Below are positions 25,545 to 51,020 of a DNA stretch of 64,000 nucleotides, piece by piece. A program made the position numbers and the translations under genes. This DNA is from Nannocystis pusilla (lineage in GTDB: Bacteria; Myxococcota_A; Polyangia; Nannocystales; Nannocystaceae): positions 221,990 to 285,989 of the forward strand of contig NZ_JAIRAU010000047.1 in assembly GCF_020073745.1 (NCBI RefSeq), in the 5' to 3' direction. How positions within the stretch are numbered: the stretch's first letter is position 1; the number at the start of each line of letters is the position of its first letter. Under the pieces are notes generated by a model. The model was not told where the DNA came from, did no database searches, and saw only the letters and a list, made by a program, of their open reading frames with translations.

Positions 25545-25620
<76 letters not shown>

Positions 25621-40163: not shown

Positions 40164-41414
40164 TCACACCCGCCCCGCGTGCGGCACCGCGGCGACCAGC
40201 GCATCGACGGCGCGACGCACCCGCGCCGTGCTCTCGTAGCAGGGGGCGCCCAGCCGCAGCAGCGGCGTGCGCTTGCCGGCGGCTCTTCGCTCGTGAACGC
40301 AGCGCACGTGGATCCCCGCGGGTTGCAGCGACGCGCACACCGCCTCGACGTCGACCGCGGGCAGCGTCACGCTCACCGTCGCCAGCAACCCGTCCGCGGT
40401 CGGCGGCGTCTCGCGCTCCTCGCCCGTCACCGGATCGAAGAACTGATGGGCCACGCCGGCCGCCAGCAGTCGCTCGTGGAGCTCGCGCGCCAGCCAGGCC
40501 GCCAGCGTGCGGCTCCGCTTCAGCGCGACCTGTCCGAGCGCCGCGTGCAGATCGAGCGCGGCGGCCAGCCCCGCGTAGACCGAGAAGTCGTGCGCCCCTC
40601 GCCGCTCGAGCCCCGCGCAGCCGCCCTCCTCGCTCGCATCGCCCGCCGTCAGCAGCGGCAGCTCCGAGCGCGCGCGCGTCGAGGCCCACGCCAGGCCCAC
40701 CCCCGGCGGCCCGAACAACCACTTGTGCCCGCTCGCGACCACGAAGTCGGCCCCCGTCAGCGCCGGCGGTACCAGCCCCAGCGCCTGCGCCGCGTCGACG
40801 ATCACGAACACCTCCGGCGCCGCCGCGCGGACCGCCGCCGCGATCTCCCGCACGGGAATCACCTGTCCGATCGTATAGGTCACCTGCGACAGCAGCAGGA
40901 TCGCCGGCCGCTGCGCCGCCGCGATCGCCCCCGCCGCCGCCGGATCGCGCAGCGCCGCGTCGGGCAGGATCGCCGCGCGGAACCCCGGCTCGAACGCCGC
41001 CGTCGCCCCCGGGTGCTCGTGCCCGCTGGTGAGGAGCAGCGGCGACTCGCTCCCGCCCAGCCGCTCGCTCAGCGCCGACGCGATCGTCCGCAGCGCCTCG
41101 CTCGTCCCGGCCGTCAGCGCCGGCGGGTCGCCGCCCCACAGCGCGGCCGCCAGCGCCCGGGCCCGCCGCCGCTCGGCCCGCCCGCGCTGCACCTGTCCTT
41201 CGGGATAGGCGAACAGCTCGTCGTCCCAGAACCCCTGCATCGCCGCGCGCACCGCCTGCGCCGGCGTGGCGATCGCTCCCGGGTCGAGGTTGATGCGCGC
41301 CCCGGGGAATTGGCGCACGCGCAACCTGTCCCAGAGGTCCTGGTCTTCGGGACGCTCGCGCAGCGCGCCGAGCACCGACTCGCCGGCGGGCCGGCGCCCG
41401 CTCGCCTCCGTCAT
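40164..41414 (-). CDS. Class V aminotransferase (cysteine desulfurase / epimerase-like, PLP-dependent)
   Basis: PLP-lysine region VASGHKWLFGPPGVGLAWAS; ATG at 41412-41414 (MTEASGRR). The longer annotated ORF reads through a motif array. Confidence 0.8.
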   Translation of the reverse strand: MTEASGRRPAGESVLGALRERPEDQDLWDRLRVRQFPGARINLDPGAIATPAQAVRAAMQGFWDDELFAYPEGQVQRGRAERRRARALAAALWGGDPPALTAGTSEALRTIASALSERLGGSESPLLLTSGHEHPGATAAFEPGFRAAILPDAALRDPAAAGAIAAAQRPAILLLSQVTYTIGQVIPVREIAAAVRAAAPEVFVIVDAAQALGLVPPALTGADFVVASGHKWLFGPPGVGLAWASTRARSELPLLTAGDASEEGGCAGLERRGAHDFSVYAGLAAALDLHAALGQVALKRSRTLAAWLARELHERLLAAGVAHQFFDPVTGEERETPPTADGLLATVSVTLPAVDVEAVCASLQPAGIHVRCVHERRAAGKRTPLLRLGAPCYESTARVRRAVDALVAAVPHAGRV

Positions 41415-41559
41415 CGGCTGCCCTCTGCCATCGGTCCACAGTAGACCGCCGCGCGCCCTCCCGGGGGATCGATCCGCCGCGCTGAACCGCGCTCCCCGAG
41501 CGCCGCCGCGCGGCAGCGCGCACGGCCGAGGTCGCGACCGTCGTATCTGTTCCACCATG

Positions 41560-41600
41560 CCTGTTCGGACATGCCCCAACCGACATGTCCATTCAACCAT
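41560..41600. repeat. Motif array (ttcggacatgccccaaccgacatgtccattc)
   Basis: Between the aminotransferase start and the lipoprotein stop. Confidence 0.7.
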
Positions 41601-41632
41601 GGCCGCGAACAGCGTCTCGCACCTCGCCGGCC

Positions 41633-42265
41633 TCACAGCGAGTTCTGCAGCACACACTCCCCGGCCACGCAGCGGGCCACCTTCGCGGTGCACTGGTCGA
41701 TGGCGACGCACGGCACCTCGTCGGGCGGCACCGGGCACTGCGCCAGCTGGTCGACGCAGTCGGTGGCGATCGCCATCTCGTGGCCGCCGAGGTCGCACGG
41801 GCAGCAGCCCGGGACCACCTTCTGGCAGTCCTCGTCGTCGTTGCAGCCGCAGCGCGGCTCGGTCCGGCAGCGGCAGATCTCGCAGCCGCGCTCGTCGCGT
41901 TGGAACCCGAACGGGCACAGGAGGGTGCACGGCACCGGCTCACACACGGCAGCCGCGTCGACGCAGGTCCCGCCGCCGCAGTCGAGGCTGCAGGCCGACT
42001 GCCCCGTCGCCGGATCGCAGCTGCACAGCGAGGGCACGCACTCCGGGCCCCGCTGGCATACCTGTCCTTCCGGACACCCGGCCTGCACGCAGCCCGGCTG
42101 CCGGAACCCCTCGCACGGGTCCTCCGCGACGTCCGTGTCCTCGCCCGGACTGGGCGGCACGAGCGGCACCTGGGCCGTCCGCACCGGCACGCCGGGCGGC
42201 AGGACGTCGCACCCCGGCCCGAGCGCCGCGCCCAGCAACACCACCGCCAATGGCAGAGATCGCAT
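41633..42265 (-). CDS. Cys-rich lipoprotein A (TIL/EGF-like 10-Cys module)
   Basis: ATG with GGAAGGAG SD; lipobox LGPGC; C-x7-C-x4-C-x5-C-x5-C-x4-C-x-C-x8-C-x3-C-x4-C pattern, then a second Cys-rich module. Confidence 0.65.
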   Translation of the reverse strand: MRSLPLAVVLLGAALGPGCDVLPPGVPVRTAQVPLVPPSPGEDTDVAEDPCEGFRQPGCVQAGCPEGQVCQRGPECVPSLCSCDPATGQSACSLDCGGGTCVDAAAVCEPVPCTLLCPFGFQRDERGCEICRCRTEPRCGCNDDEDCQKVVPGCCPCDLGGHEMAIATDCVDQLAQCPVPPDEVPCVAIDQCTAKVARCVAGECVLQNSL

Positions 42266-42429
42266 GACCACGCTCCTTCCGGCGAGCGTGGCCCGGGCGC
42301 ACGCGCGAGCAAGCCGGCGAGCCGGGCGACCGGCACGCGCGAGCCCCCGCCCGCGACGCCTCGGCTCGGACCGCTGCTCGCCCGCCCCGCCGAGGCGCGG
42401 CGGCCCGGCCGCAGCGGACCGGACCTTGG

Positions 42430-42500
42430 TTCATGCCCGAAGGACCATGCTCCTTCGGACATTCCCCTCAGGACATGTCCGTCACGACATGCCCCGGAGG
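42430..42500. repeat. Motif array with hairpin-capable copy (CCGAAGGA-ccatgc-TCCTTCGG)
   Basis: catgcccgaaggaccatgctccttcggacattcccctcaggacatgtccgtcacgacatgcccc. Confidence 0.8.
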
Positions 42501-42501
42501 G

Positions 42502-43350
42502 TCACTGCAGCACGCACTGCCCCTGCGAGCACACCGCCTGGGCGTCGGTGCACAGGTACACCGCCGGGCACACCACCTCGCCGGGCGGGAACGGGCACGG
42601 CTCGAGCTGGTCGAGGCAGGCGGCCGCGACCGCCACCTCGGCCCCGCCCATGTTGCACGAGCAGCAGCCGGGGCTGGCCTTGACGCAGTCGGCGTCGGAC
42701 TCGCAGCCGCAGTCGGGCGCCGGCGGCTCGTTGCAGGCGCAGATCTCGCAGCCCTGCTCGTCCTTCTGGAACCCGAACTCGCAGAACAGGTCGCAGACCA
42801 CCGGGTCGCACAAGGACGCCACGCAGGTGCCGCCGCCGCAGTCCGGCGTGCAGTTGATCTGCTGCGTGACCGGATCGCAGCTGCAGGCCGACGGCACGCA
42901 TTCGACCCCCATCTCGCACGTCTGTCCCTCGGGACAGCCCTTCTCGATGCACCCCGGCTGCTCGAAGTCGTCGCACAGGTTGCCGCCGGTGCTGGTCTCC
43001 CCGGTCGTGTCCGGACCGGCGGTGCCGCTCGTCGTCTCGGCGGTGGTGCCCGCCGTCGTCTCGCCGCTCGTGCTCGTCGTCGTCGTCTCGCTGCTCGTGC
43101 TCGTCGTCGTCGTCTCGCCCGTCGCCGACTCGGTCTGCCCCTCGCTGCCTCCCGTCTCGGTCGGCCCGCCGGAGCCCGTCAGCGTCGCGCTGCCGGAGCT
43201 CGTGTCGGCGCTCGTCGCCGTGCTCTCCGAGGTCTGACCGGACTCGCCGCCCTCGCTGGTCCCGCCGCTCTGACCGCAACCCAGCCCGAGCACCAGCGCC
43301 GCGCAACTCGCAGCTCGCGCCATCCGACCCTGCGTGTTCATGATCATCAT
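42502..43350 (-). CDS. Cys-rich lipoprotein B (paralog of A, with Thr/Ser/Gly-rich linker)
   Basis: AAGGAG SD + ATGATGATCATG start in a locally AT-rich leader; lipobox LGLGCG; ~110-aa T/S/G linker; Cys module collinear with protein A (FEQPGCIEKGCPEGQTC... vs FRQPGCVQAGCPEGQVC...). Confidence 0.65.
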   Translation of the reverse strand: MMIMNTQGRMARAASCAALVLGLGCGQSGGTSEGGESGQTSESTATSADTSSGSATLTGSGGPTETGGSEGQTESATGETTTTSTSSETTTTSTSGETTAGTTAETTSGTAGPDTTGETSTGGNLCDDFEQPGCIEKGCPEGQTCEMGVECVPSACSCDPVTQQINCTPDCGGGTCVASLCDPVVCDLFCEFGFQKDEQGCEICACNEPPAPDCGCESDADCVKASPGCCSCNMGGAEVAVAAACLDQLEPCPFPPGEVVCPAVYLCTDAQAVCSQGQCVLQ

Positions 43351-43460
43351 AATTAAGCTCCTTCGTCGCGGGCATAGCCGACAGGCCTCACCGCGACAAG
43401 CGACGCCCGCAGCCGCGTGTGGCCAGCGACGCCCCTGCGCGGTCGGGCCCGCTCGTGAAG

Positions 43461-44483
43461 CTACACGCGGACCTGAGCGCGGGGCGGCGGCGCGCCGGGC
43501 AGCTGCAGGCAATAGGCGACGAACGCGGCGAACACCGGGCGCGCGCGCCCCTCGGTCGGCAGCGCGTGCAGGTGCAGCGCAGGCACCACGTTGACCTCGA
43601 GCAGCAGCGCCGAGCCCTGCGCCGCCGCGGGCGGCCCCGCGAACGCCGCCAGCGGCCCGCGGAGGTCGACCCCGCCGACATCGACCCCCAGCAGATCGCA
43701 CGCCGACGCCGCGACCGCCAGCCACTCCGGGTGCACCTCCTCGGTCCGATCGATCACGGCGAGCTCGTCGCCCGTGATCTCGACCTCACGCCCGTCGGGG
43801 ATCGCCGCCTCGAGGTCGAGCTCATAGACCTCGAGGTGACCGGCGAGGTCCTCGTCCGCCTCGATCTGGTCGATCGGACAGAGGCTCGGCGTCGACCACG
43901 TCCCGCGCCGCGCGTCGCGGTTCAGCGCCGCCACCTGCGCCGCCGCGCTGCGCCCCGCCTGCAACGTCGGCCGCACCACCTCGACCGCGGCCAGCGCCTC
44001 CCCGGCGATCACCGCCACGCGCAGGTTGGTCCCGGCGATGAACGGCTCGACCAGCACCTCCTCGTCGAGGTCGATCGCGCGGGCCCGCTCGCGCGCGCGC
44101 GCCAGGGTCGCCAGGTCGCGCACATCGGTCGCGACCCCGACCCCGCGGTTCCCCCAGTTGGGCTTGACCACCAGCCGCCCGTGACGCGCCAGCAGGGCCC
44201 GCACCACCGGCCCGGCGATGTCGCCGGCCTCGTCGACCAGCACCCCCTCGGCGCACGGCAGCGCGCGCGCGCGCAGCAGCTCGCGGCTCAGGTGCTTGTT
44301 GTTGGCCAGGCCCTGCGCCACCTGCGTCAGGAACGGCGAGCGCGTCTTGCTGACGATCGCCGAGCGCTCGCCGTGCGACAGGCGCATGAAGTAGTCGGTG
44401 TGCTCGCGCCCGAGCGGCTCGGCCCGCGCCCCGAGCTCGGCCGCCGCCGCCGCGATCAGCTGGTTCGTCCTGCTCCAGACCAC
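43461..44483 (-). CDS. ATP-grasp ligase (RimK/GshB-like)
   Basis: VVKPNWGNRGVGV and LVEPFIAG..NLRV ATP-grasp motifs; GTG start immediately after a motif array. Confidence 0.75.
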   Translation of the reverse strand: MVWSRTNQLIAAAAAELGARAEPLGREHTDYFMRLSHGERSAIVSKTRSPFLTQVAQGLANNKHLSRELLRARALPCAEGVLVDEAGDIAGPVVRALLARHGRLVVKPNWGNRGVGVATDVRDLATLARARERARAIDLDEEVLVEPFIAGTNLRVAVIAGEALAAVEVVRPTLQAGRSAAAQVAALNRDARRGTWSTPSLCPIDQIEADEDLAGHLEVYELDLEAAIPDGREVEITGDELAVIDRTEEVHPEWLAVAASACDLLGVDVGGVDLRGPLAAFAGPPAAAQGSALLLEVNVVPALHLHALPTEGRARPVFAAFVAYCLQLPGAPPPRAQVRV

Positions 44484-44560
44484 TGGGACATGTCCTCTCA
44501 GACATGGCTCAATCGCCATGTCCTTTATGACCTGTCGTATACGACAGCAGCTCGCCCTCG
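44480..44560. repeat. Motif array between the aminopropyltransferase-like and ATP-grasp genes
   Basis: gggacatgtcctctcagacatggctcaatcgccatgtcctttatgacctgtcgtatacgacag. Confidence 0.8.
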
Positions 44561-45429
44561 CCGGTGATCACCTGCCCCGGCTCGGCCAGGCGGCGGCGCA
44601 GGATCGGCGGCAGCTCGAGCGCCGCGCGGTGGGCCGTCGGCGTGTACCACTGCAGCTCGCCGAGCGCGGCGATCCGGCGGGCCAGGTCGGGCGGGTCGGC
44701 GTCGAGCGGCCGGCGCGACATCAGGGCGAAGCCCCACAGGCAGTGGAACGACGGCACGAAGCCGTGGGCGAAGCGGACGTGGGGGAACACCGCCTCGAGC
44801 GTGCTGCGGACGGTGCGGGCCAGCTTGAGGTCGAGCGGGTCGAGCTCGCCGGCCTGCAGCACGCAGATCCCGTCGTCGGCCAGCGCGCGCCGCACCAGCG
44901 CGAAGAACCGGGTCGAGAACAGCGCCGCCGAGGGCCCCTCGTCCGTCGGGTCGGTGACGTCGAGGACGATCGCGTCGAAGCTGCCGGGCGCGGCCTGGCG
45001 CAGCGTGTCGAAGATGTCCTCGGTGCGCAGCTCGACGCGGGGATCGTCGAGGCTGCCGGCGTGCCACTTCTCGAGGAACCGCCGGCTGAGCTCGACCACC
45101 TCGGCGTCGAGGTCGACCGACACGATCTTCTCGACCGAAGCGTGGCGGAGGATCTCCCGCAGGGACGCGCCCTCGCCTGTCCCTCCGACCAGCACCCGGC
45201 GCGGCGACCCGTGCAGCACCAGCGCCGGGTGGATCAGCGCCTCGTGGTAGAGCGCCTCGTCGGCCTCGGCCGACTGCACCAGCCCGTCGAGGAACAGCAT
45301 GCGCCCGTAGGCGCTGGTGTCGGCGACGACCGCGTCCTGGTAGCGCGTCTTCACGTGCGCGACCAGGCGCTCGACGCTGTACAGGATCGACACGCCCTCG
45401 ATCTCGGGCTCTTGCAGCACCAGGTGCAT
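44509..45429 (-). CDS. Spermidine synthase-like aminopropyltransferase (PABS family, variant GGTGEG motif)
   Basis: PABS fold motifs VLVGGTGEGASLREILRH (canonical GGGDGG) and DVTDPTDEGP (canonical DSSDPxGP). Confidence 0.75.
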   Translation of the reverse strand: MHLVLQEPEIEGVSILYSVERLVAHVKTRYQDAVVADTSAYGRMLFLDGLVQSAEADEALYHEALIHPALVLHGSPRRVLVGGTGEGASLREILRHASVEKIVSVDLDAEVVELSRRFLEKWHAGSLDDPRVELRTEDIFDTLRQAAPGSFDAIVLDVTDPTDEGPSAALFSTRFFALVRRALADDGICVLQAGELDPLDLKLARTVRSTLEAVFPHVRFAHGFVPSFHCLWGFALMSRRPLDADPPDLARRIAALGELQWYTPTAHRAALELPPILRRRLAEPGQVITGEGELLSYTTGHKGHGD

Positions 45430-45444
45430 CGTCTGTCCTTTCGC

Positions 45445-45927
45445 TCAGCCGCGCGACCGGCGGCGGCTGGCGATCATACCGAGCCCGGTGGCCACCAGCG
45501 CCAGCATCCCGAGGCCCGCGAGCAGCGCGGCGGCCTGCCCCGGCAGACCGACGATCTCGCCGGTGTGCAGCTTGAACAGCAGCTGCGTCAGCCCGCCCGC
45601 GGTGCGGCGGCGCTCGATCAGCGAGCCGTCGCCGGCCAGGTAGAGCACCGTCTCATCGTCGTCGTCGAGCCAGAACACCCACGGCGCGTCGGGTTCGGTG
45701 GCCAGGCCGATGTCGGTGATCACCTCGTCGCCGGCCTCGCGCTGCGCGCGCTCCAGCAGCGCCTCCAGCGCGAGCGGCCGCTCGACCACCGGCGCGGTCG
45801 GCGGCGGCACCTTCGTGCAGCCGCGGAACACCAGCATCGCCCCCGTCAACGCGATCACCGCGAACACCGCCGCCAGCCCGGCCCCGACCGTCTGGTGCAG
45901 CTTGAACAGCCTCCGGCGCATGCTCAT
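45445..45927 (-). CDS. PepSY-associated TM helix protein
   Basis: Two TM helices flanking a periplasmic segment; typical partner of TonB-dependent receptors. Confidence 0.65.
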   Translation of the reverse strand: MSMRRRLFKLHQTVGAGLAAVFAVIALTGAMLVFRGCTKVPPPTAPVVERPLALEALLERAQREAGDEVITDIGLATEPDAPWVFWLDDDDETVLYLAGDGSLIERRRTAGGLTQLLFKLHTGEIVGLPGQAAALLAGLGMLALVATGLGMIASRRRSRG

Positions 45928-45967
45928 ACGGACATGCTCCTTCGTTCATGCCCCTTGCGACATGTCC

Positions 45968-48421
45968 TCACAGCGTGGCCCCCCAGGTGCGCCAGAACCA
46001 CCGCTCCATCCGCCGCACCCCGGCCGTCCAGACCCGGCGGTTGACCTTGCCGGACTTCCAGCGCATGCGCGCCTGCTCGCCGGCCTTGCCGCGGATCCAC
46101 TCGTGGGCGAACCCCAGGTTGAAGTAGAACGTGCGCGGGCGCATCGGCAGGATGCCGCCGTTGATGTCGTCGGAGCGGGTGAACCACACCTCGTCGAGCA
46201 AGTTCTTGACGCCGACGGTCGCCTCGAGCCGCCAGCCCTGCGGCAGGGCGGTGCGGTAGCCGAGCCACGCGCCCATCAGCGTGTAGGCCGGCATCGTCCC
46301 GACCTCGCCGGTCGCGCGCGGCGCGTCCCAGTTGGCGTAGTCGGTGTACTGCCTGTCGACCCACTCGACCTTGGTGCCGACGCGCAGGCCGAACGGCGCC
46401 TCGTAGCTGGCCGAGCCCCACACCTCGTGCGCCGGATACCACGGCATGCGGTTGCCGGTGTAGAGGTCGCGCAGCACCCGGCTGCCGTTGTAGGCGTAGC
46501 CGGCGTTGAACTCGAGCCCCTCGACCTTCTCCCACACCTCGCCGGGCAGCCACTCGACGTCGACCTCGGCGCCGTAGGTGTGGGCCGCCGGGATGACGTC
46601 GATCGCGTTCTCGCCCTCGTCGCGGAGGTTGTTGAAGTAGCGGTACCAGCCGTCGACGGTCGCGTAGACCCCGCCGAGCTCCATCAGCTTGACGCCCGCC
46701 TCGACGGTGTCGGCCAGCTCGGGCTTGATGAAGCGCAGCGCCCGGCCCATCGCCTCGCCGGGGTTGATCGGCTGGATCGCCCCCGACAGGTAGCTCGGCG
46801 CGCCGAACGAGCGCCCGTAGCCGAGGTAGAGCCCGACGTAATCGCCGCCGTACCACAGCGACGCCGCCGGCAGCGGCCCGCCGTAGAACGGCCGCGGGTA
46901 GCTCACGCCCTCGAGCACGTTGTAAAAGCTCTGCTTGGTCAGCTCGAGCCGCACGCCGGCCGTCAGCACCAGCTTGGTGTCGAGCAGGTAGATCTTGTCC
47001 TCGAGGTACAGCGAGTAGCCGCCGATCCGGCCGTCGAAGCAGCGCAGCGCGTTGGGCGAGCCCTCCGGCAGCACCGCGCCGCGCGGGCACACCCGCGCGT
47101 CGCCGTCGGCCTGCAGCGGGTCGCCGGGGCGCCCCGGAAACTCGACGCGGAAGCCGCGGATCCGCGCCGCCTCGAACACGCCGCGCGTGCCGATCGAGAT
47201 GTCGTGGAAGCCGCCGCGGTGGCGCACGCGGAACGCGTAGCGCGGCTCGACGCCGACCACGTCGAACGCGCGCGGCTGCACCAGCAGGAACGTCGGCGCC
47301 GCGCCGAGGTTGCGGTCCTCGTTGGTCGCCTGGACCACCCGGCGCAGCGTGTGGCTGTAGAACGCGATCACCTGCAGCTCGTGCTCGGCCTTCGGCGTCC
47401 ACCGCAGCTTGAGGCTGGTACCCTCGCGGTGGCCGTTGAACGTGTCGAACGGGCGCTTGCTGGCGAACCGGTCGTCTCTGTAGACGTCGGAGTCGAGGCC
47501 GCCCGGCAGGTTGGTCTTCTCCCAGAACAGGTGCGTGCTCGACAGCAGCTCGACGCGCTTCGTCACCGGCACTTGGAGCTTGACGATCCCGCCGTGGCTC
47601 TGAAACTCGCTGTGCTCGCGGTACGTCTTGCCGAACCGCGGCGCGTACTCGACGTACACGCCGACGCCCCTGTGCGTGCCGCCGTACGAGGCCGCCGCGC
47701 CGGCGTCGCCGAAGTGATCCGACTGGGCGAACACCGACACCGTCGGGTTCTTCGGGATCGGGTGCGACACCATGTTGAACACGCCGCCCGACGTCCACGG
47801 CCCGAAGCGCACCGACGAGCCGCCGCGCACCGTGTCGACGCGGGCGATCTGGAACAGCGACAGCGGGAACAGCACCATCGACGGCGCGCCGTACGGGGCC
47901 GGCGCCACCGGCACCTCGTCGAGCAGGATCGTCGCCTGCTCCGACAGCCGCGGGTCGGCGCCGCGGACCGCCAGGTTGAGCTTCGTCGCCGACGTCCCGA
48001 GCCCCGACGCGCCCTCGACCGCGCGCACCCCCGGGACCTTGTCGAGCAGCTCGGCCACCCCGCTGGCGCCCTCGGCCTTCGACTGGTCGACGTCGACCAC
48101 CGCGCGCCCGCCCGCGTGGCGGTGGGCGTCGACGCGGGTCGAGCGGCCGAGCAGGTCGGTCGTCACCTCGATGTCGCGCGACTCGCCCGGCAGCACCTTG
48201 GCGCCGGCGGGCAGCGGCCGCTCCTCGGGCTCGGGCGCCGCCGGGGCGGTGACCGTCGGACTGCCTGTCTCTTCGGGCATGCTCTTCAGAGCAGGCTCTC
48301 GAGAGAATGTCCAATCGGGCCTGTCCTCCGGAGCAGGCACGTCCGGGGCCGCGTCCGGCCCGTCGTACGCGCGCGGGTCGACGGCCAGCAGCAGGGCCAG
48401 GCTGTACGCGAGCGGCGACAC
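45968..48421 (-). CDS. TonB-dependent outer-membrane receptor (siderophore-type) with ~43-aa C-terminal extension beyond the usual terminal aromatic residue
   Basis: Plug + 22-strand barrel features; canonical C-terminus ...FYFNLGFAHEW is followed in-frame by IRGKAGEQARMRW...WGATL*; GTG start 5 bp after the upstream gene stop. Confidence 0.8.
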   Translation of the reverse strand: MSPLAYSLALLLAVDPRAYDGPDAAPDVPAPEDRPDWTFSREPALKSMPEETGSPTVTAPAAPEPEERPLPAGAKVLPGESRDIEVTTDLLGRSTRVDAHRHAGGRAVVDVDQSKAEGASGVAELLDKVPGVRAVEGASGLGTSATKLNLAVRGADPRLSEQATILLDEVPVAPAPYGAPSMVLFPLSLFQIARVDTVRGGSSVRFGPWTSGGVFNMVSHPIPKNPTVSVFAQSDHFGDAGAAASYGGTHRGVGVYVEYAPRFGKTYREHSEFQSHGGIVKLQVPVTKRVELLSSTHLFWEKTNLPGGLDSDVYRDDRFASKRPFDTFNGHREGTSLKLRWTPKAEHELQVIAFYSHTLRRVVQATNEDRNLGAAPTFLLVQPRAFDVVGVEPRYAFRVRHRGGFHDISIGTRGVFEAARIRGFRVEFPGRPGDPLQADGDARVCPRGAVLPEGSPNALRCFDGRIGGYSLYLEDKIYLLDTKLVLTAGVRLELTKQSFYNVLEGVSYPRPFYGGPLPAASLWYGGDYVGLYLGYGRSFGAPSYLSGAIQPINPGEAMGRALRFIKPELADTVEAGVKLMELGGVYATVDGWYRYFNNLRDEGENAIDVIPAAHTYGAEVDVEWLPGEVWEKVEGLEFNAGYAYNGSRVLRDLYTGNRMPWYPAHEVWGSASYEAPFGLRVGTKVEWVDRQYTDYANWDAPRATGEVGTMPAYTLMGAWLGYRTALPQGWRLEATVGVKNLLDEVWFTRSDDINGGILPMRPRTFYFNLGFAHEWIRGKAGEQARMRWKSGKVNRRVWTAGVRRMERWFWRTWGATL

Positions 48422-48427
48422 GGCGGT

Positions 48428-49600
48428 TCAGGGCACGACGACGGCCGTGGCCCCGCGGATCCGCAGGCTGCGATCGGGATCGGTGAACAGCGGCCCGAGC
48501 TCGTCGTGGACCTCGAAGCGCCAGGCCGACGGCGCCTCGGCCGTCGGCTCGGTGATCTTGTAGACCGTGCCGCCGATGCCGACGGCGTAGATCGCCCCCT
48601 GGACGCGGGCCAGGCCCTCGATCTCGAAGCCGGCCGGGATGTCGTCGATGTACGGCCCGTACGCGCGCGGCTCGGGCATCTCGCCGGAGGCGGCGACTCG
48701 CAGCAGCTCGTGGCGGCCCTCGGGGAGCGTCTCCGACATCTCGCCGCGGACCAGCGCGAGCACGTCACCGCCTGGCCCCGGGACCATGTCCCCGGAGACA
48801 CCCACCTTCTCCTCGAACTGCGCGTGGATCGAGCAGATCGGGTCGCAGGCGTAATAGAGCGGGTCGTGGCTGATGTCGCTCGGTAGCACGCAGTGCTTGG
48901 GCTCGGCCAGGAACGCCGGGTCGAGCTCGAACAGCGCCCCGCGGGCGTCGAGGCCGTTGCCGGGCTTGCCGGCCGAGGCGGCGAACAGGGTGTCGCCGAC
49001 GAACTCGAGGCCGGTCATGCTCTGGCGCCAGTAGCAGGCGTCGGTGGCCGGGTCCTTCACGTCGCCGTACTTGAAGGCGTAGCGGACGCTCTCGATGCGG
49101 TTGTCGGCGCGGGTCCAGTCGGGCACGCCGAGGGTCATCAGGCCCCACTCGTCGTTGAGCGGGTCGTAGCTGAGGCCCCACAGCCCCTTCTCGGCGTGCC
49201 AGGCCAGGTCGCGCACGGTGAAGCGCAGCAGCGACTGATCGGACATCGAGATCGGGCCCATCTTGTCGTCGAGCCACAGGTTGCCGAGCTTGCTCAGGCA
49301 GCCGCCGTCCTTGCACGGCTTCGACGGGTCGTACAGGTAGAGCGCGTTGCCGACGTAGCGGCCCTCGGCGTCGAGCGGGAAGTTGGCGGTGAAGTTGGCG
49401 TCGCCGTCGGTCGGCTTGGTGTTGACCAGCAGCATCAGCTCGCCGCGGAGCGGCTGGTCTTCGGGACAGCCCTCGCAGAGGTCGACCTCCGGCGGCAGCC
49501 CCTCGCCCTCGTACGTGTCCGGCATCATCGGCTCGTAGCCGACGCAGCCCGACGCGACCGTCGCCACGCCGGCGAGGGCAATATTGAAAATCGTTTTCAT
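48428..49600 (-). CDS. Lipoprotein (first gene of the TonB-dependent-receptor operon)
   Basis: MKTIFNIALAGVATVASGC lipobox; ATG embedded in an AT-rich leader; non-R-rich 390-aa protein. Confidence 0.6.
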   Translation of the reverse strand: MKTIFNIALAGVATVASGCVGYEPMMPDTYEGEGLPPEVDLCEGCPEDQPLRGELMLLVNTKPTDGDANFTANFPLDAEGRYVGNALYLYDPSKPCKDGGCLSKLGNLWLDDKMGPISMSDQSLLRFTVRDLAWHAEKGLWGLSYDPLNDEWGLMTLGVPDWTRADNRIESVRYAFKYGDVKDPATDACYWRQSMTGLEFVGDTLFAASAGKPGNGLDARGALFELDPAFLAEPKHCVLPSDISHDPLYYACDPICSIHAQFEEKVGVSGDMVPGPGGDVLALVRGEMSETLPEGRHELLRVAASGEMPEPRAYGPYIDDIPAGFEIEGLARVQGAIYAVGIGGTVYKITEPTAEAPSAWRFEVHDELGPLFTDPDRSLRIRGATAVVVP

Positions 49601-49745
49601 TTACCGGTGTTCTCTACACCGCAGTCCGCCGGGGGTCAAGCAGGTAATTCCACCCAAGAAACAGGACGTCAATGACCTTGCAAATGATTTTCCTTTTCAT
49701 TATGACCCGGCCGCACGCCCCCGCTCGCCCTTTCAGGAGATTTCC
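49601..49745. promoter_or_regulatory. AT-rich divergent promoter region with Fur-box-like inverted repeats
   Basis: AATATTGAAAATCGTTTTCATTT (GAAAA..TTTTC arms) and GCAAATGATTTTCCTTTTCATTATGAC resemble the Fur consensus GATAATGATAATCATTATC; region ~45% GC in a ~70% GC genome, flanked by a TonB-dependent-receptor operon and an imelysin-like gene. Confidence 0.4.
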
Positions 49746-51020
49746 ATGCACCTGCGCAGCCTTCCCCTACTCGCCCTCTCGCTCGGTCTGGCCGCCTGTC
49801 CGGGCAATGAATCCGCGACCGACGGCACCGACACCGAGACCGCCGGGCCCACCACCAACGAGCCGGCGACCGACCCGGGCACCGAGACCGACGGCACCGA
49901 GACCGCCGCCCCGACGACCACCGAGGACGAGCCGACGGCCGGGACCACCGGCGAGCCGGGCGGCGACCTGAACCCGCACACCCTCGGCGACCACGCCAGC
50001 CAGGCCTGCAAGGACGCCATGACGGGGGCCGCGGCCTTCCTCGCCGCCACCGCCGACGCCGACGCCGCCGCCGCCACCGCCGCCTACGGCGACGCGCTCA
50101 AGATCTACGTCCAGACCATCGACACCGGCAACATGCGCGACGACGACAGCGCCATCACGGCCGCGCTCATGCAGAACGACGCCCCCGGGGCCGCGCTCGC
50201 CGAGGGCCACCTCTACACCGCCCTCATGTTCCAGCTGCGGGCCAACCTCTCGGCCGTCGAGACCGGCGCCGAGGACAAGTACGCCGCCTGGGACGAGGCC
50301 CACTGCGTGTGGGACGGCGGCCTGCGGCTGCTCGCCACCCGGGCCCAGGAGGAGGGCTGGAAGACCGAGGGCGACCCGATCGTCGCCGACATCGACGCCG
50401 CCTTCGCCGCCGGCCACGACGGCATCAGCGGCGACGCTCCGGCCACCGCCATCGACGACTGGCGGATCCCCCCGCAGAAGCAGATCATCGAGAAGACCCT
50501 GTTCCGCGCCGCCCACCGCGACATCATCGGCAAGGCGATCGCCGCCGCCGACGCGGCCGACGCCACCCAGGCCGCGCGCGCGCTCGGCGTGTTCGGGATC
50601 GTGCGCGACCGGCTCGAGGGCCGCAACACCCCCGGCATCGCCGTCATCGAGGGCATGCTGACCGGCGACCCGGCCATGATCAACGGCACGGTGGTCGCCT
50701 TCGAGATGGACAAGGCGTTCGCCAAGCGCACCCGCAACTACGCCGACCAGGCGTTCGGCGAGGGCCTCGGGATCCCGCCGAGCTACAAGGGCGCGGTCGA
50801 GGGGCGCACCTATGCCAAGCTCATCGTCGCCGGGATGTCCTCGGCGATGTTGAACACCGACGCCTACCTCGCCGACTGGGAGGATTACGCGGAGCTTGTG
50901 CGCACGGGTGAGGACGACGCGGCGGCCATGGAGATCAGCCAGCGGATCATCGACACCACCTGCATGTACCAGACCCTGCTCGGAATCGCCGCCTGCACCG
51001 GCAGCGATGACGAGACCTAG
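49746..51020 (+). CDS. Secreted lipoprotein, possibly imelysin/EfeO-like iron-associated protein
   Basis: MHLRSLPLLALSLGLAACPG lipobox; T/E/G-rich linker; helical domain with GHLYTAL (HxxE-like). Family assignment is tentative. Confidence 0.5.
   Translation: MHLRSLPLLALSLGLAACPGNESATDGTDTETAGPTTNEPATDPGTETDGTETAAPTTTEDEPTAGTTGEPGGDLNPHTLGDHASQACKDAMTGAAAFLAATADADAAAATAAYGDALKIYVQTIDTGNMRDDDSAITAALMQNDAPGAALAEGHLYTALMFQLRANLSAVETGAEDKYAAWDEAHCVWDGGLRLLATRAQEEGWKTEGDPIVADIDAAFAAGHDGISGDAPATAIDDWRIPPQKQIIEKTLFRAAHRDIIGKAIAAADAADATQAARALGVFGIVRDRLEGRNTPGIAVIEGMLTGDPAMINGTVVAFEMDKAFAKRTRNYADQAFGEGLGIPPSYKGAVEGRTYAKLIVAGMSSAMLNTDAYLADWEDYAELVRTGEDDAAAMEISQRIIDTTCMYQTLLGIAACTGSDDET

Follow-up and report, generated by a model that had tools for sequence, protein, structure and literature searches.

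What do a polyamine aminopropyltransferase (PABS) and an ATP-grasp ligase do when their genes follow directly behind genes for metal uptake? This question is raised by a 64,000-nucleotide stretch of DNA from Nannocystis pusilla (NCBI RefSeq assembly GCF_020073745.1, contig NZ_JAIRAU010000047.1, positions 221,990 to 285,989 of the forward strand), hereafter called the window. An earlier note on this DNA, made from the letters alone, had described a five-gene string on the minus strand, and all five open reading frames (ORFs) are indeed present at positions 43461-49600. In transcriptional order, they are as follows.

48428-49600, minus strand: lipoprotein of 390 residues, recognized from its ORF and the lipobox VASGC, with a five-bladed beta-propeller
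45968-48421, minus strand: FecA-like TonB-dependent receptor of 817 residues without an N-terminal signalling domain, recognized from its Plug and barrel domains
45445-45927, minus strand: half-size PepSY_TM protein of 160 residues (transmembrane segment, PepSY, transmembrane segment), matching PF03929 with 57.7 bits
44509-45429, minus strand: PABS enzyme of 306 residues and of the Thermus/Pyrobaculum type, recognized from PF01564 and PF17284
43461-44483, minus strand: stand-alone ATP-grasp ligase of 340 residues, a relative of the cyanophycin synthetase G domain, recognized from profile and PDB matches

We class this locus as a metal-regulated, metallophore-type uptake and biosynthesis locus with unusual enzymology. 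In the model that we propose, it would act as a metal-repressed divergon in Nannocystis. A repressor of the Fur family, most probably Fur loaded with Fe2+, would bind two 7-1-7 operators, of which box 1 would cover the promoter of a divergent lipoprotein gene and box 2 the transcription and translation start of the operon. Under metal scarcity, the five genes would be transcribed as one unit. The surface propeller lipoprotein would capture the ligand or cap the receptor, the FecA-like receptor would import a ferric carboxylate-type chelate, and a PepSY_TM dimer would bind haem via two conserved histidines and, in the periplasm, reduce the Fe(III) complex once it has been imported. The PABS enzyme would move aminopropyl groups from decarboxylated S-adenosylmethionine (dcSAM) onto a di- or polyamine to extend its backbone, and the ATP-grasp enzyme would phosphorylate a carboxylate and join it to an amine of that polyamine. 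The resulting polyamine amide might serve by itself or as a building block of a polyamine-carboxylate metallophore, and, should the FslA-like IucA/IucC synthetase that Nannocystis genomes encode at another site contribute as well, the product could be rhizoferrin-like. We put the proposal that the two enzymes make a polyamine amide used in metal acquisition at slightly below even odds. Co-transcription, the identity of the metal, the substrates of the enzymes and metal binding by the product are what we infer from the sequence.

The arrangement of the genes suggests a single transcription unit. Gaps along the string, from 5′ to 3′, are 6, 40, 15 and 25 nucleotides, and the 15 nucleotides between the PepSY_TM and PABS genes contain nothing but a Shine-Dalgarno-like GAAAGGA. 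A scan of positions 41500-50000 found no terminator-like site, and Rfam gave no match in the operon region. It is likely, then, that all five genes are co-transcribed. The ATP-grasp ORF as first called spans 43461-44519. Because all ATP-grasp homologues are about 340 residues long, translation probably begins at the GTG at 44483 rather than at the ATG at 44519.

The uptake module and its operator

The receptor contains a Plug domain (PF07715, 45.4 bits) and a barrel domain (PF00593, 92.8 bits), as expected of a TonB-dependent siderophore receptor. Its PDB matches are to E. coli FecA only (2.7e-63, residues 84-767). It is not a FecA equivalog, since it scores 279.6 bits against the FecA NCBIfam model, below the cut-off of 1100, and lacks the N-terminal signalling domain, with the match beginning at model position 110. 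The lipoprotein, which matches no Pfam family, is proposed to be a surface partner of this receptor. A link to DUF4374/XusB or BtuG was considered and rejected, as nothing is shared beyond the architecture and the matches are to generic five-bladed propellers.

PepSY_TM proteins are haem-dependent ferrisiderophore reductases, and the characterized members that have been modelled all have at least four predicted transmembrane segments (PMC13038864). The protein in the window matches PF03929 (cut-off 28.8 bits) at profile positions 174-293 only, and its two ends align to the first and last transmembrane segments of FoxB (7abw). Two histidines are conserved, with H121 (F-x-L-H-T-G-E) being invariant and H11 (F-K-L-H) being found in every aligned row that has a complete N-terminus. 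The protein therefore carries the FoxB-type signature of PF03929 with conserved haem-ligand histidines, but not the four or more transmembrane segments and large periplasmic cavity that FoxB-type proteins hold in one chain. Such a half-size protein would have to homodimerize.

The leader of the operon has a GC content of 0.61, compared to approximately 0.72 for the genome and also for the window, in agreement with its earlier description as AT-rich. It includes two AT-rich 7-1-7 palindromes of the form TGAAAAn-N-nTTTTCA. When at most two mismatches are allowed, TGAAAANNNTTTTCA occurs at two sites in the window, both in the leader, against 0.04 expected. Fur-box-like repeats had previously been placed at 49601-49745. 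Box 1 is located inside this interval, whereas the best box falls just outside. The elements of this region are given below.

49585-49599, overlapping the start codon: box 2, a perfect 7-1-7 palindrome, TGAAAACGATTTTCA (minus-strand reading), with 0 mismatches
49679-49699: box 1, in two overlapping registers, TGAAAAGGAAAATCA at 49685-49699 and GGAAAATCATTTGCA at 49679-49693
49634-49639 and 49611-49616, minus strand: putative operon promoter read from the sequence, TTGACC and TAGAGA with a 17-nucleotide spacer
49746-51020, plus strand: divergent lipoprotein gene of 424 residues with the lipobox GLAAC, recognized as an ORF

Box 2 begins at the TG of the lipoprotein ATG, and box 1 is situated 47-61 nucleotides 5′ of the ATG of the divergent gene. 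Conservation of the operator was counted over 27 related loci that include the lipoprotein start. Box 2 is present with at most two mismatches at the identical position relative to the ATG or GTG in every one of these loci, and this position is kept down to 38% lipoprotein identity. In 25 of the 27, a box-1 site is also present, between −88 and −121 relative to the start of the lipoprotein gene. Approximately 0.89 Mb of related DNA contains a single other site with at most one mismatch, 13 nucleotides 5′ of a PepSY_TM gene. At one related locus (L030, 2016-2960), a third perfect box (TGAAAATGGTTTTCA) precedes by 13 nucleotides a 305-residue PepSY_TM-like gene that lies just 3′ of the divergent lipoprotein gene, and the iron island is larger in that lineage.

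The overlap with coding sequence has left a trace in codon usage. Although the GC content at third codon positions is 0.97 in the lipoprotein gene, A or T is the last letter in four of its first six codons after the ATG, and therefore the constraint acts on the DNA. At 49581-49603, where the operator overlaps the start codon, the signal-peptide codons AAA, ATT, AAT and ATT seem to follow from the binding site and not from codon preference. Between the boxes, the sequences CTTGACC and GGTG(C)TA(C/G)AGA are conserved across loci, with TAGAGA replaced by TACAGA in relatives. A consensus promoter scanner did not call the putative TTGACC/TAGAGA promoter. If this promoter is used as read, then box 2 would lie across the transcription start and the mRNA would be nearly leaderless, with only a few nucleotides preceding the start codon.

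We consider it very likely that the boxes constitute a Fur-family operator that places the operon under metal control. A 17-base-pair palindrome, WTGAAAATNATTTTCAW, is the dFUR box located 5′ of feoAB and fur in Geobacter, Desulfuromonas and Desulfovibrio, in whose genomes the E. coli Fur profile found nothing and the predicted Zur sites differ (Rodionov et al. 2004, PMC545781). The operator consensus at our locus is identical to this dFUR box, and ATGAAAACGATTTTCAA at 49584-49600 matches the palindrome. An E. coli-type Fur box (GATAATGATAATCATTATC) was rejected because the sites fit the delta-proteobacterial variant. The dFUR regulon was defined in those three genera and not in Myxococcota, and the Nannocystis locus departs from it in that one operator overlaps a start codon. 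A search of the literature for a myxobacterial Fur consensus found none.

Zur boxes with an identical core, TGAAAA(C/T)GATTTTCA, are also on record in Mycobacterium avium subsp. paratuberculosis (PMC4298942), and so Zur and zinc are a possible regulator and metal. The operon might then be a zinc-starvation system that couples ZnuD-like import to a zincophore pathway, in analogy to the Zur-controlled cnt/pseudopaline and ethylenediamine disuccinate (EDDS) clusters. There is ample precedent for control of TonB-dependent receptors and metallophore clusters by Zur (PMC6103462). We nevertheless regard zinc control as improbable. Among the closest relatives for which sites have been studied, precisely this consensus is the one that precedes feoAB and fur, and no zinc-regulon gene (znuABC, COG0523 or ribosomal paralogues) is present in the window or in the related loci. 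Fur with iron is most likely, because of the delta-proteobacterial proximity, the receptor that resembles FecA alone, the PepSY_TM reductases that accompany it, and the IucA/IucC-FhuF synthetases that occur in relatives.

The divergent lipoprotein family is confined to Nannocystaceae, and the divergent orientation of its gene is kept in 17 of 40 genome loci. The protein from the window has no match in Pfam, NCBIfam or PDB profiles, and its AlphaFold2 model from a single sequence has a mean predicted confidence (pLDDT) of 45.

The aminopropyltransferase and the ATP-grasp ligase

The PABS protein matches PF01564 with 132.6 bits (cut-off 22.9) and the N-terminal tetramerization domain PF17284 with 36.2 bits (cut-off 22.1). 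Its scores fall slightly short of the cut-offs at which NCBIfam assigns equivalog names (235 versus 260 for PRK00811 and 207.8 versus 249.55 for TIGR00417), which makes it a divergent member of the family. Among known structures, the best matches are the polyamine aminopropyltransferase 7xif (1e-53, residues 5-276) and the triamine/agmatine aminopropyltransferase SpeE of Thermus thermophilus (1uir, 1e-49, residues 16-239), and all three share a GGGEGA-type dcSAM motif and DxTDP. The earlier note had pointed to the string GGTGEG, which does occur in the protein, and had concluded from it that the substrate is altered. That conclusion does not hold. GGTGEGA aligns column for column with GGGEGA of 1uir and 7xif, and the comparison with GGGDGG is therefore misplaced.

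The one variable position in this motif, the second Gly, is T, A or G across 37 aligned family members. The same sequences retain Q (LDG..QS), DE, YHE, GxGEGA, DLD and DxTDP, the last of which reads DVTDP in the window. GGTGEG was consequently rejected as evidence that the donor or substrate is altered. Nothing in the sequence hints at a changed donor, and the enzyme has the appearance of a functional aminopropyltransferase that uses dcSAM and is of the broad-specificity Thermus type. It differs from SpeE and 7xif in the T/A/G position, in the family-specific motifs Q.GE and VPSFH.LW, and in always being paired with an ATP-grasp enzyme.

The ligase had been labelled RimK/GshB-like, a name that its scores do not bear out. 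It reaches 17.8 bits against RimK TIGR00768 (cut-off 143.4), and GshAB models match weakly. The nearest sequence relative is instead the G domain of cyanophycin synthetase, with CphA1 (7wac, 1.3e-18) as best PDB match and 7lg5 as a further structure of this domain. Against the NCBIfam model for cyanophycin synthetase, the protein scores 140.5 bits where the cut-off is 877, and it covers model residues 171-468 only. CphA1 has N, G and M domains in approximately 870 residues, whereas this stand-alone protein of 340 residues has neither the N nor the M domain. A profile search of 1.84 billion representatives revealed a small, isolated clade with about a dozen matches above 230 bits, roughly half of which are fragments; below 230 bits, scores fall to other stand-alone and CphA-like proteins. 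More distant stand-alone relatives (P0365, P0358 and P0366) are found in unrelated contexts and are uninformative. Within the genus, the ligase from the window shares 96% identity with the N. radixulma protein and 85-88% with its counterparts in N. exedens, N. punicea, N. pusilla and N. bainbridge.

The roles of individual residues have been assigned in Trichodesmium CphA1 (TeCphA1), including R323, N394 in the ANLSTGG loop and R458, which recognize aspartate (PMC9427784). We mapped these residues onto 20 members of the ATP-grasp family. Equivalents of K220, K261, R309, E450 and N452, which serve ATP, Mg and the acyl phosphate, are invariant in all 20 and are shared with CphA1, as befits a member of the ATP-grasp superfamily. 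By contrast, each of the three elements that hold the aspartate carboxylate is replaced throughout the 20 sequences. R323 is V, I or L, R458 is H, and the ANLSTGG loop is a segment five residues shorter with the acidic pattern E-x-E-I-x-G-(D/E)-E. In addition, H267 of the P-loop is an invariant Arg. Because the aspartate-binding elements are all replaced while the ATP and acyl-phosphate residues are kept, our reading is that the ligase still makes an acyl phosphate but would use a nucleophile other than an acidic amino acid. The acidic pocket would fit a cationic amine such as a polyamine. Identities as cyanophycin synthetase, RimK or GshB were rejected on account of scores far below the cut-offs and the replaced aspartate-binding residues, and the database names of ‘cyanophycin synthetase’ for this family are misannotations.

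Related loci and a possible role in chelator biosynthesis

We gathered 68 related loci from genomes and metagenomes. Pairing of the two enzymes was counted over the 57 loci with enough sequence, and full gene order over the 36 with 6 kb upstream. The PABS gene is directly 5′ of the ATP-grasp gene in 56 of 57 loci, the exception being a Plesiocystis locus where three genes lie between them, and on this basis the two form an obligate pair. The order lipoprotein, receptor, PepSY_TM, PABS and ATP-grasp is found in 28 of 36 loci, across lineages with protein identities of approximately 45-55%. Even where the receptor is elsewhere, PepSY_TM stays beside the enzyme pair.

Two contigs, L037 and L038, come from deltaproteobacterial metagenome-assembled genomes (MAGs). 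Each carries, in this order, three lipoprotein paralogues, a receptor, PepSY_TM, an IucA/IucC synthetase, a major facilitator superfamily (MFS) protein, and an ATP-grasp gene flanked by two fusions of S-adenosylmethionine decarboxylase (AdoMetDC) to PABS, the first of which has a degenerate DLVDEV in place of DxTDP. At a third locus, L075, the same ATP-grasp gene is followed by such a fusion. This arrangement in L037 and L038 reads as a self-contained siderophore-type cluster and provides the strongest argument that the enzyme pair takes part in chelator biosynthesis. More broadly, an IucA/IucC-FhuF synthetase whose best NCBIfam match is the rhizoferrin enzyme FslA is encoded within 10 kb in 10 of the 68 loci. 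In 19 loci, which are from Enhygromyxa, Plesiocystis and MAGs, PABS has a homospermidine synthase (HSS)-like gene as its divergent neighbour, usually with PepSY_TM nearby and usually without the receptor, although L016, L025 and L048 have the receptor set and the HSS-like gene together. The encoded Rossmann protein of approximately 400 residues is distantly related to homospermidine synthase (6y87, 1e-7), has no Pfam or NCBIfam assignment, and may represent a new subfamily of polyamine-forming enzymes. Positions of these additional genes are as follows.

L037, 8721-9974 and 10966-12081: AdoMetDC fused N-terminally to PABS
L038, 2585-3763 and 4755-5828: AdoMetDC fused N-terminally to PABS
L075, 1079-2149: AdoMetDC fused N-terminally to PABS
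L012, L013, L016, L017, L019, L022-L026, L028, L031, L032, L034 and L036: HSS-like gene divergent from PABS

Together with the mycobacterial Zur box, several observations weigh against a metallophore pathway in Nannocystis. The PABS enzyme may be the ordinary spermidine synthase of the cell, and the PepSY_TM protein has two transmembrane segments instead of the four or more of characterized members. A tblastn search of the window for IucA/IucC, HSS-like, MFS and AdoMetDC proteins found none, and the 64 kb accordingly contain no IucA/IucC synthetase of the kind that defines a nonribosomal peptide synthetase (NRPS)-independent siderophore (NIS) cluster. Either the two enzymes alone make the product, therefore, or their partners are located elsewhere in the genome. 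Nannocystis species do encode orthologous IucA/IucC proteins with 45-50% identity. In N. punicea, however, approximately 240 kb separate the gene from the locus; it shares an operon with prs and nadE, and no box is found within 10 kb of it. This apparent operon (L041, 7680-14779, in CP114040) comprises genes for an AAA_16 protein, two unknown proteins, IucA/IucC, phosphoribosyl pyrophosphate synthetase and NAD synthase, with the IucA/IucC gene overlapping its neighbours, which is an odd context for a siderophore synthetase.

The distribution of the operator also counts on this side. At Plesiocystis locus L070, the divergent lipoprotein, propeller lipoprotein and receptor genes keep both boxes and have no enzyme genes 3′ of them, whereas PepSY_TM, HSS-like, PABS and ATP-grasp genes are on a different contig (L032) that has no box. 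A box was likewise sought 5′ of PABS in loci without a receptor, including those of the Enhygromyxa type, and only a GC-rich conserved stretch was found. The operator therefore belongs to the uptake module, and the enzymes come under its influence only where they are fused behind that module, as in the window. Moreover, part of the co-localization may reflect conserved synteny, because mdh-sucCD and tol-pal-like genes flank the region across loci.

The main rival to the metallophore reading is that the enzymes are hitch-hiking. The lipoprotein, receptor and PepSY_TM would form a self-sufficient Fur-controlled importer, perhaps for a chelate from other organisms (a xenosiderophore or ferric citrate-like compound), and PABS and ATP-grasp would be a lineage-specific polyamine-modification pair in an ancestrally syntenic region, acting in polyamine homeostasis, in a storage or osmoprotective conjugate, or on an envelope component, with no role in metal acquisition. 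An operator that travels with the uptake module, a syntenic wider neighbourhood, and a window without exporter or NIS synthetase are all consistent with this explanation, as is the presence of the osmolyte-forming N-acetylglutaminylglutamine synthetase among related ATP-grasp enzymes. However, the gap between PepSY_TM and PABS is too short for a promoter, the fused order recurs across diverged lineages, and in loci that lack the receptor the enzymes are still accompanied by PepSY_TM, whose family comprises metal reductases. Furthermore, L037 and L038 place the pair directly behind the receptor, between IucA/IucC-MFS and a second AdoMetDC-PABS fusion. On balance, we judge hitch-hiking to be rather unlikely.

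The order of genes in the operon permits another explanation, in which the enzymes act on what is imported. They might re-extend or re-conjugate the imported compound, or a polyamine part released from it, as a form of recycling or detoxification after iron release. The operon has no exporter, and the enzymes come after the uptake and reduction genes in transcriptional order, as this would suggest. Yet both enzymes are of biosynthetic types that consume dcSAM and ATP, L037 and L038 encode an MFS exporter-like protein and an NIS synthetase in addition, and we know of no precedent for ligand processing by such enzymes. We therefore hold this to be very improbable.

A polyamine-derived metallophore becomes a reasonable reading because the enzyme pair of relatives clusters with IucA/IucC, MFS and AdoMetDC fusions, and the proposal now stands on better grounds than the motif argument first made for it. 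What survives of the earlier idea of an iron-linked polyamine amide is supported by the operator, the obligate pair and the siderophore-type relatives; it is weakened by Enhygromyxa and Plesiocystis, where the pair is apart from the receptor and has no box. The statement that no system of this composition had been described still stands, as a search of the literature on this gene combination and on Nannocystis polyamines yielded nothing specific and no described equivalent. Tentatively, we suggest an undescribed class of polyamine-backbone metallophores in Nannocystaceae and some related Myxococcota. Its backbone would be tailored by a dedicated aminopropyltransferase, fused to AdoMetDC in some lineages. 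A stand-alone ATP-grasp ligase descended from the cyanophycin synthetase G domain, with a nucleophile pocket changed from Asp binding to amine binding, would close one or more amide bonds. Re-uptake would proceed via the propeller lipoprotein, FecA-like receptor and miniature PepSY_TM protein under Fur control. Nannochelins, the known siderophores of Nannocystis, are citrate-hydroxamates without a polyamine, and they are therefore not an obvious product of the locus.

Other features in and around the locus include the following.

42502 to ~43350 and 41633-42271, minus strand: two Cys-rich lipoproteins with an antistasin domain (PF02822, 3e-8 and 6.8e-10), 3′ of the ATP-grasp gene
40164-41414, minus strand: genus-specific class-V aminotransferase-fold protein, 3′ of the antistasin-like genes
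25545-25618, plus strand: transfer RNA gene, the sole Rfam match at gathering threshold within the window

The antistasin family is known from leech protease inhibitors. Lipoproteins with this domain are found solely in the loci of Nannocystis proper and in L065, and they are probably outside the system. The aminotransferase-fold protein weakly resembles cysteine desulfurase-like proteins as well as PvdN (4.6e-9), a protein of pyoverdine tailoring. In N. pusilla Na p29 (L021, 3495-11012), four genes, namely those for the receptor, PABS, the ATP-grasp ligase and the divergent lipoprotein, each appear split or truncated in tblastn, which suggests either assembly indels in a long-read genome or decay of the operon in that strain.

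Significance and comparison with known systems

If the proposal is correct, the locus would represent a new enzymatic route to a metallophore, in which a pathway-dedicated aminopropyltransferase builds the backbone and a repurposed ATP-grasp enzyme of the cyanophycin synthetase type forms the amide bonds. Unless an IucA/IucC or NRPS gene lies close by, standard genome-mining rules would miss such chemistry. The locus also provides a phylogenetically footprinted Fur-family operator for Myxococcota, one that unusually overlaps a start codon, and a minimal PepSY_TM protein with two transmembrane segments that is useful for study of this reductase family. In addition, the ‘cyanophycin synthetase’ annotations of the ATP-grasp family are corrected. 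Because strains of Nannocystis and Enhygromyxa are culturable producers of natural products, the hypothesis is directly testable.

The uptake half of the locus has the same layout as Bacteroides XusABC, Caulobacter HiuABC and Pseudomonas FoxA-FoxB, in which a surface lipoprotein, receptor and PepSY_TM reductase are under iron control. Compared to these systems, the lipoprotein of Nannocystis, a five-bladed propeller, is unrelated, its PepSY_TM partner has half the usual size and two transmembrane segments, and two enzymes are appended.

For the biosynthetic half, the vibrioferrin cluster pvsABCDE-pvuA offers a likeness, as it encodes the ATP-grasp amide ligase PvsA in a siderophore cluster beside a TonB-dependent receptor. 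Vibrioferrin differs in that it contains no polyamine, its cluster has NIS synthetases and no known PABS, and PvsA is of a different ATP-grasp branch. Rhizoferrin-type NIS systems (FslA/LbtA, an MFS exporter and an outer-membrane receptor) have the polyamine-plus-carboxylate logic in common with our proposal, and the resemblance extends to the FecA-like receptor at the Nannocystis locus and to the FslA-like IucA/IucC-FhuF and MFS proteins of its relatives. Unlike these systems, the window has neither IucA/IucC nor an exporter. To our knowledge, neither an aminopropyltransferase nor an ATP-grasp ligase is part of rhizoferrin pathways, whereas the Nannocystis locus has a dedicated enzyme of each kind.

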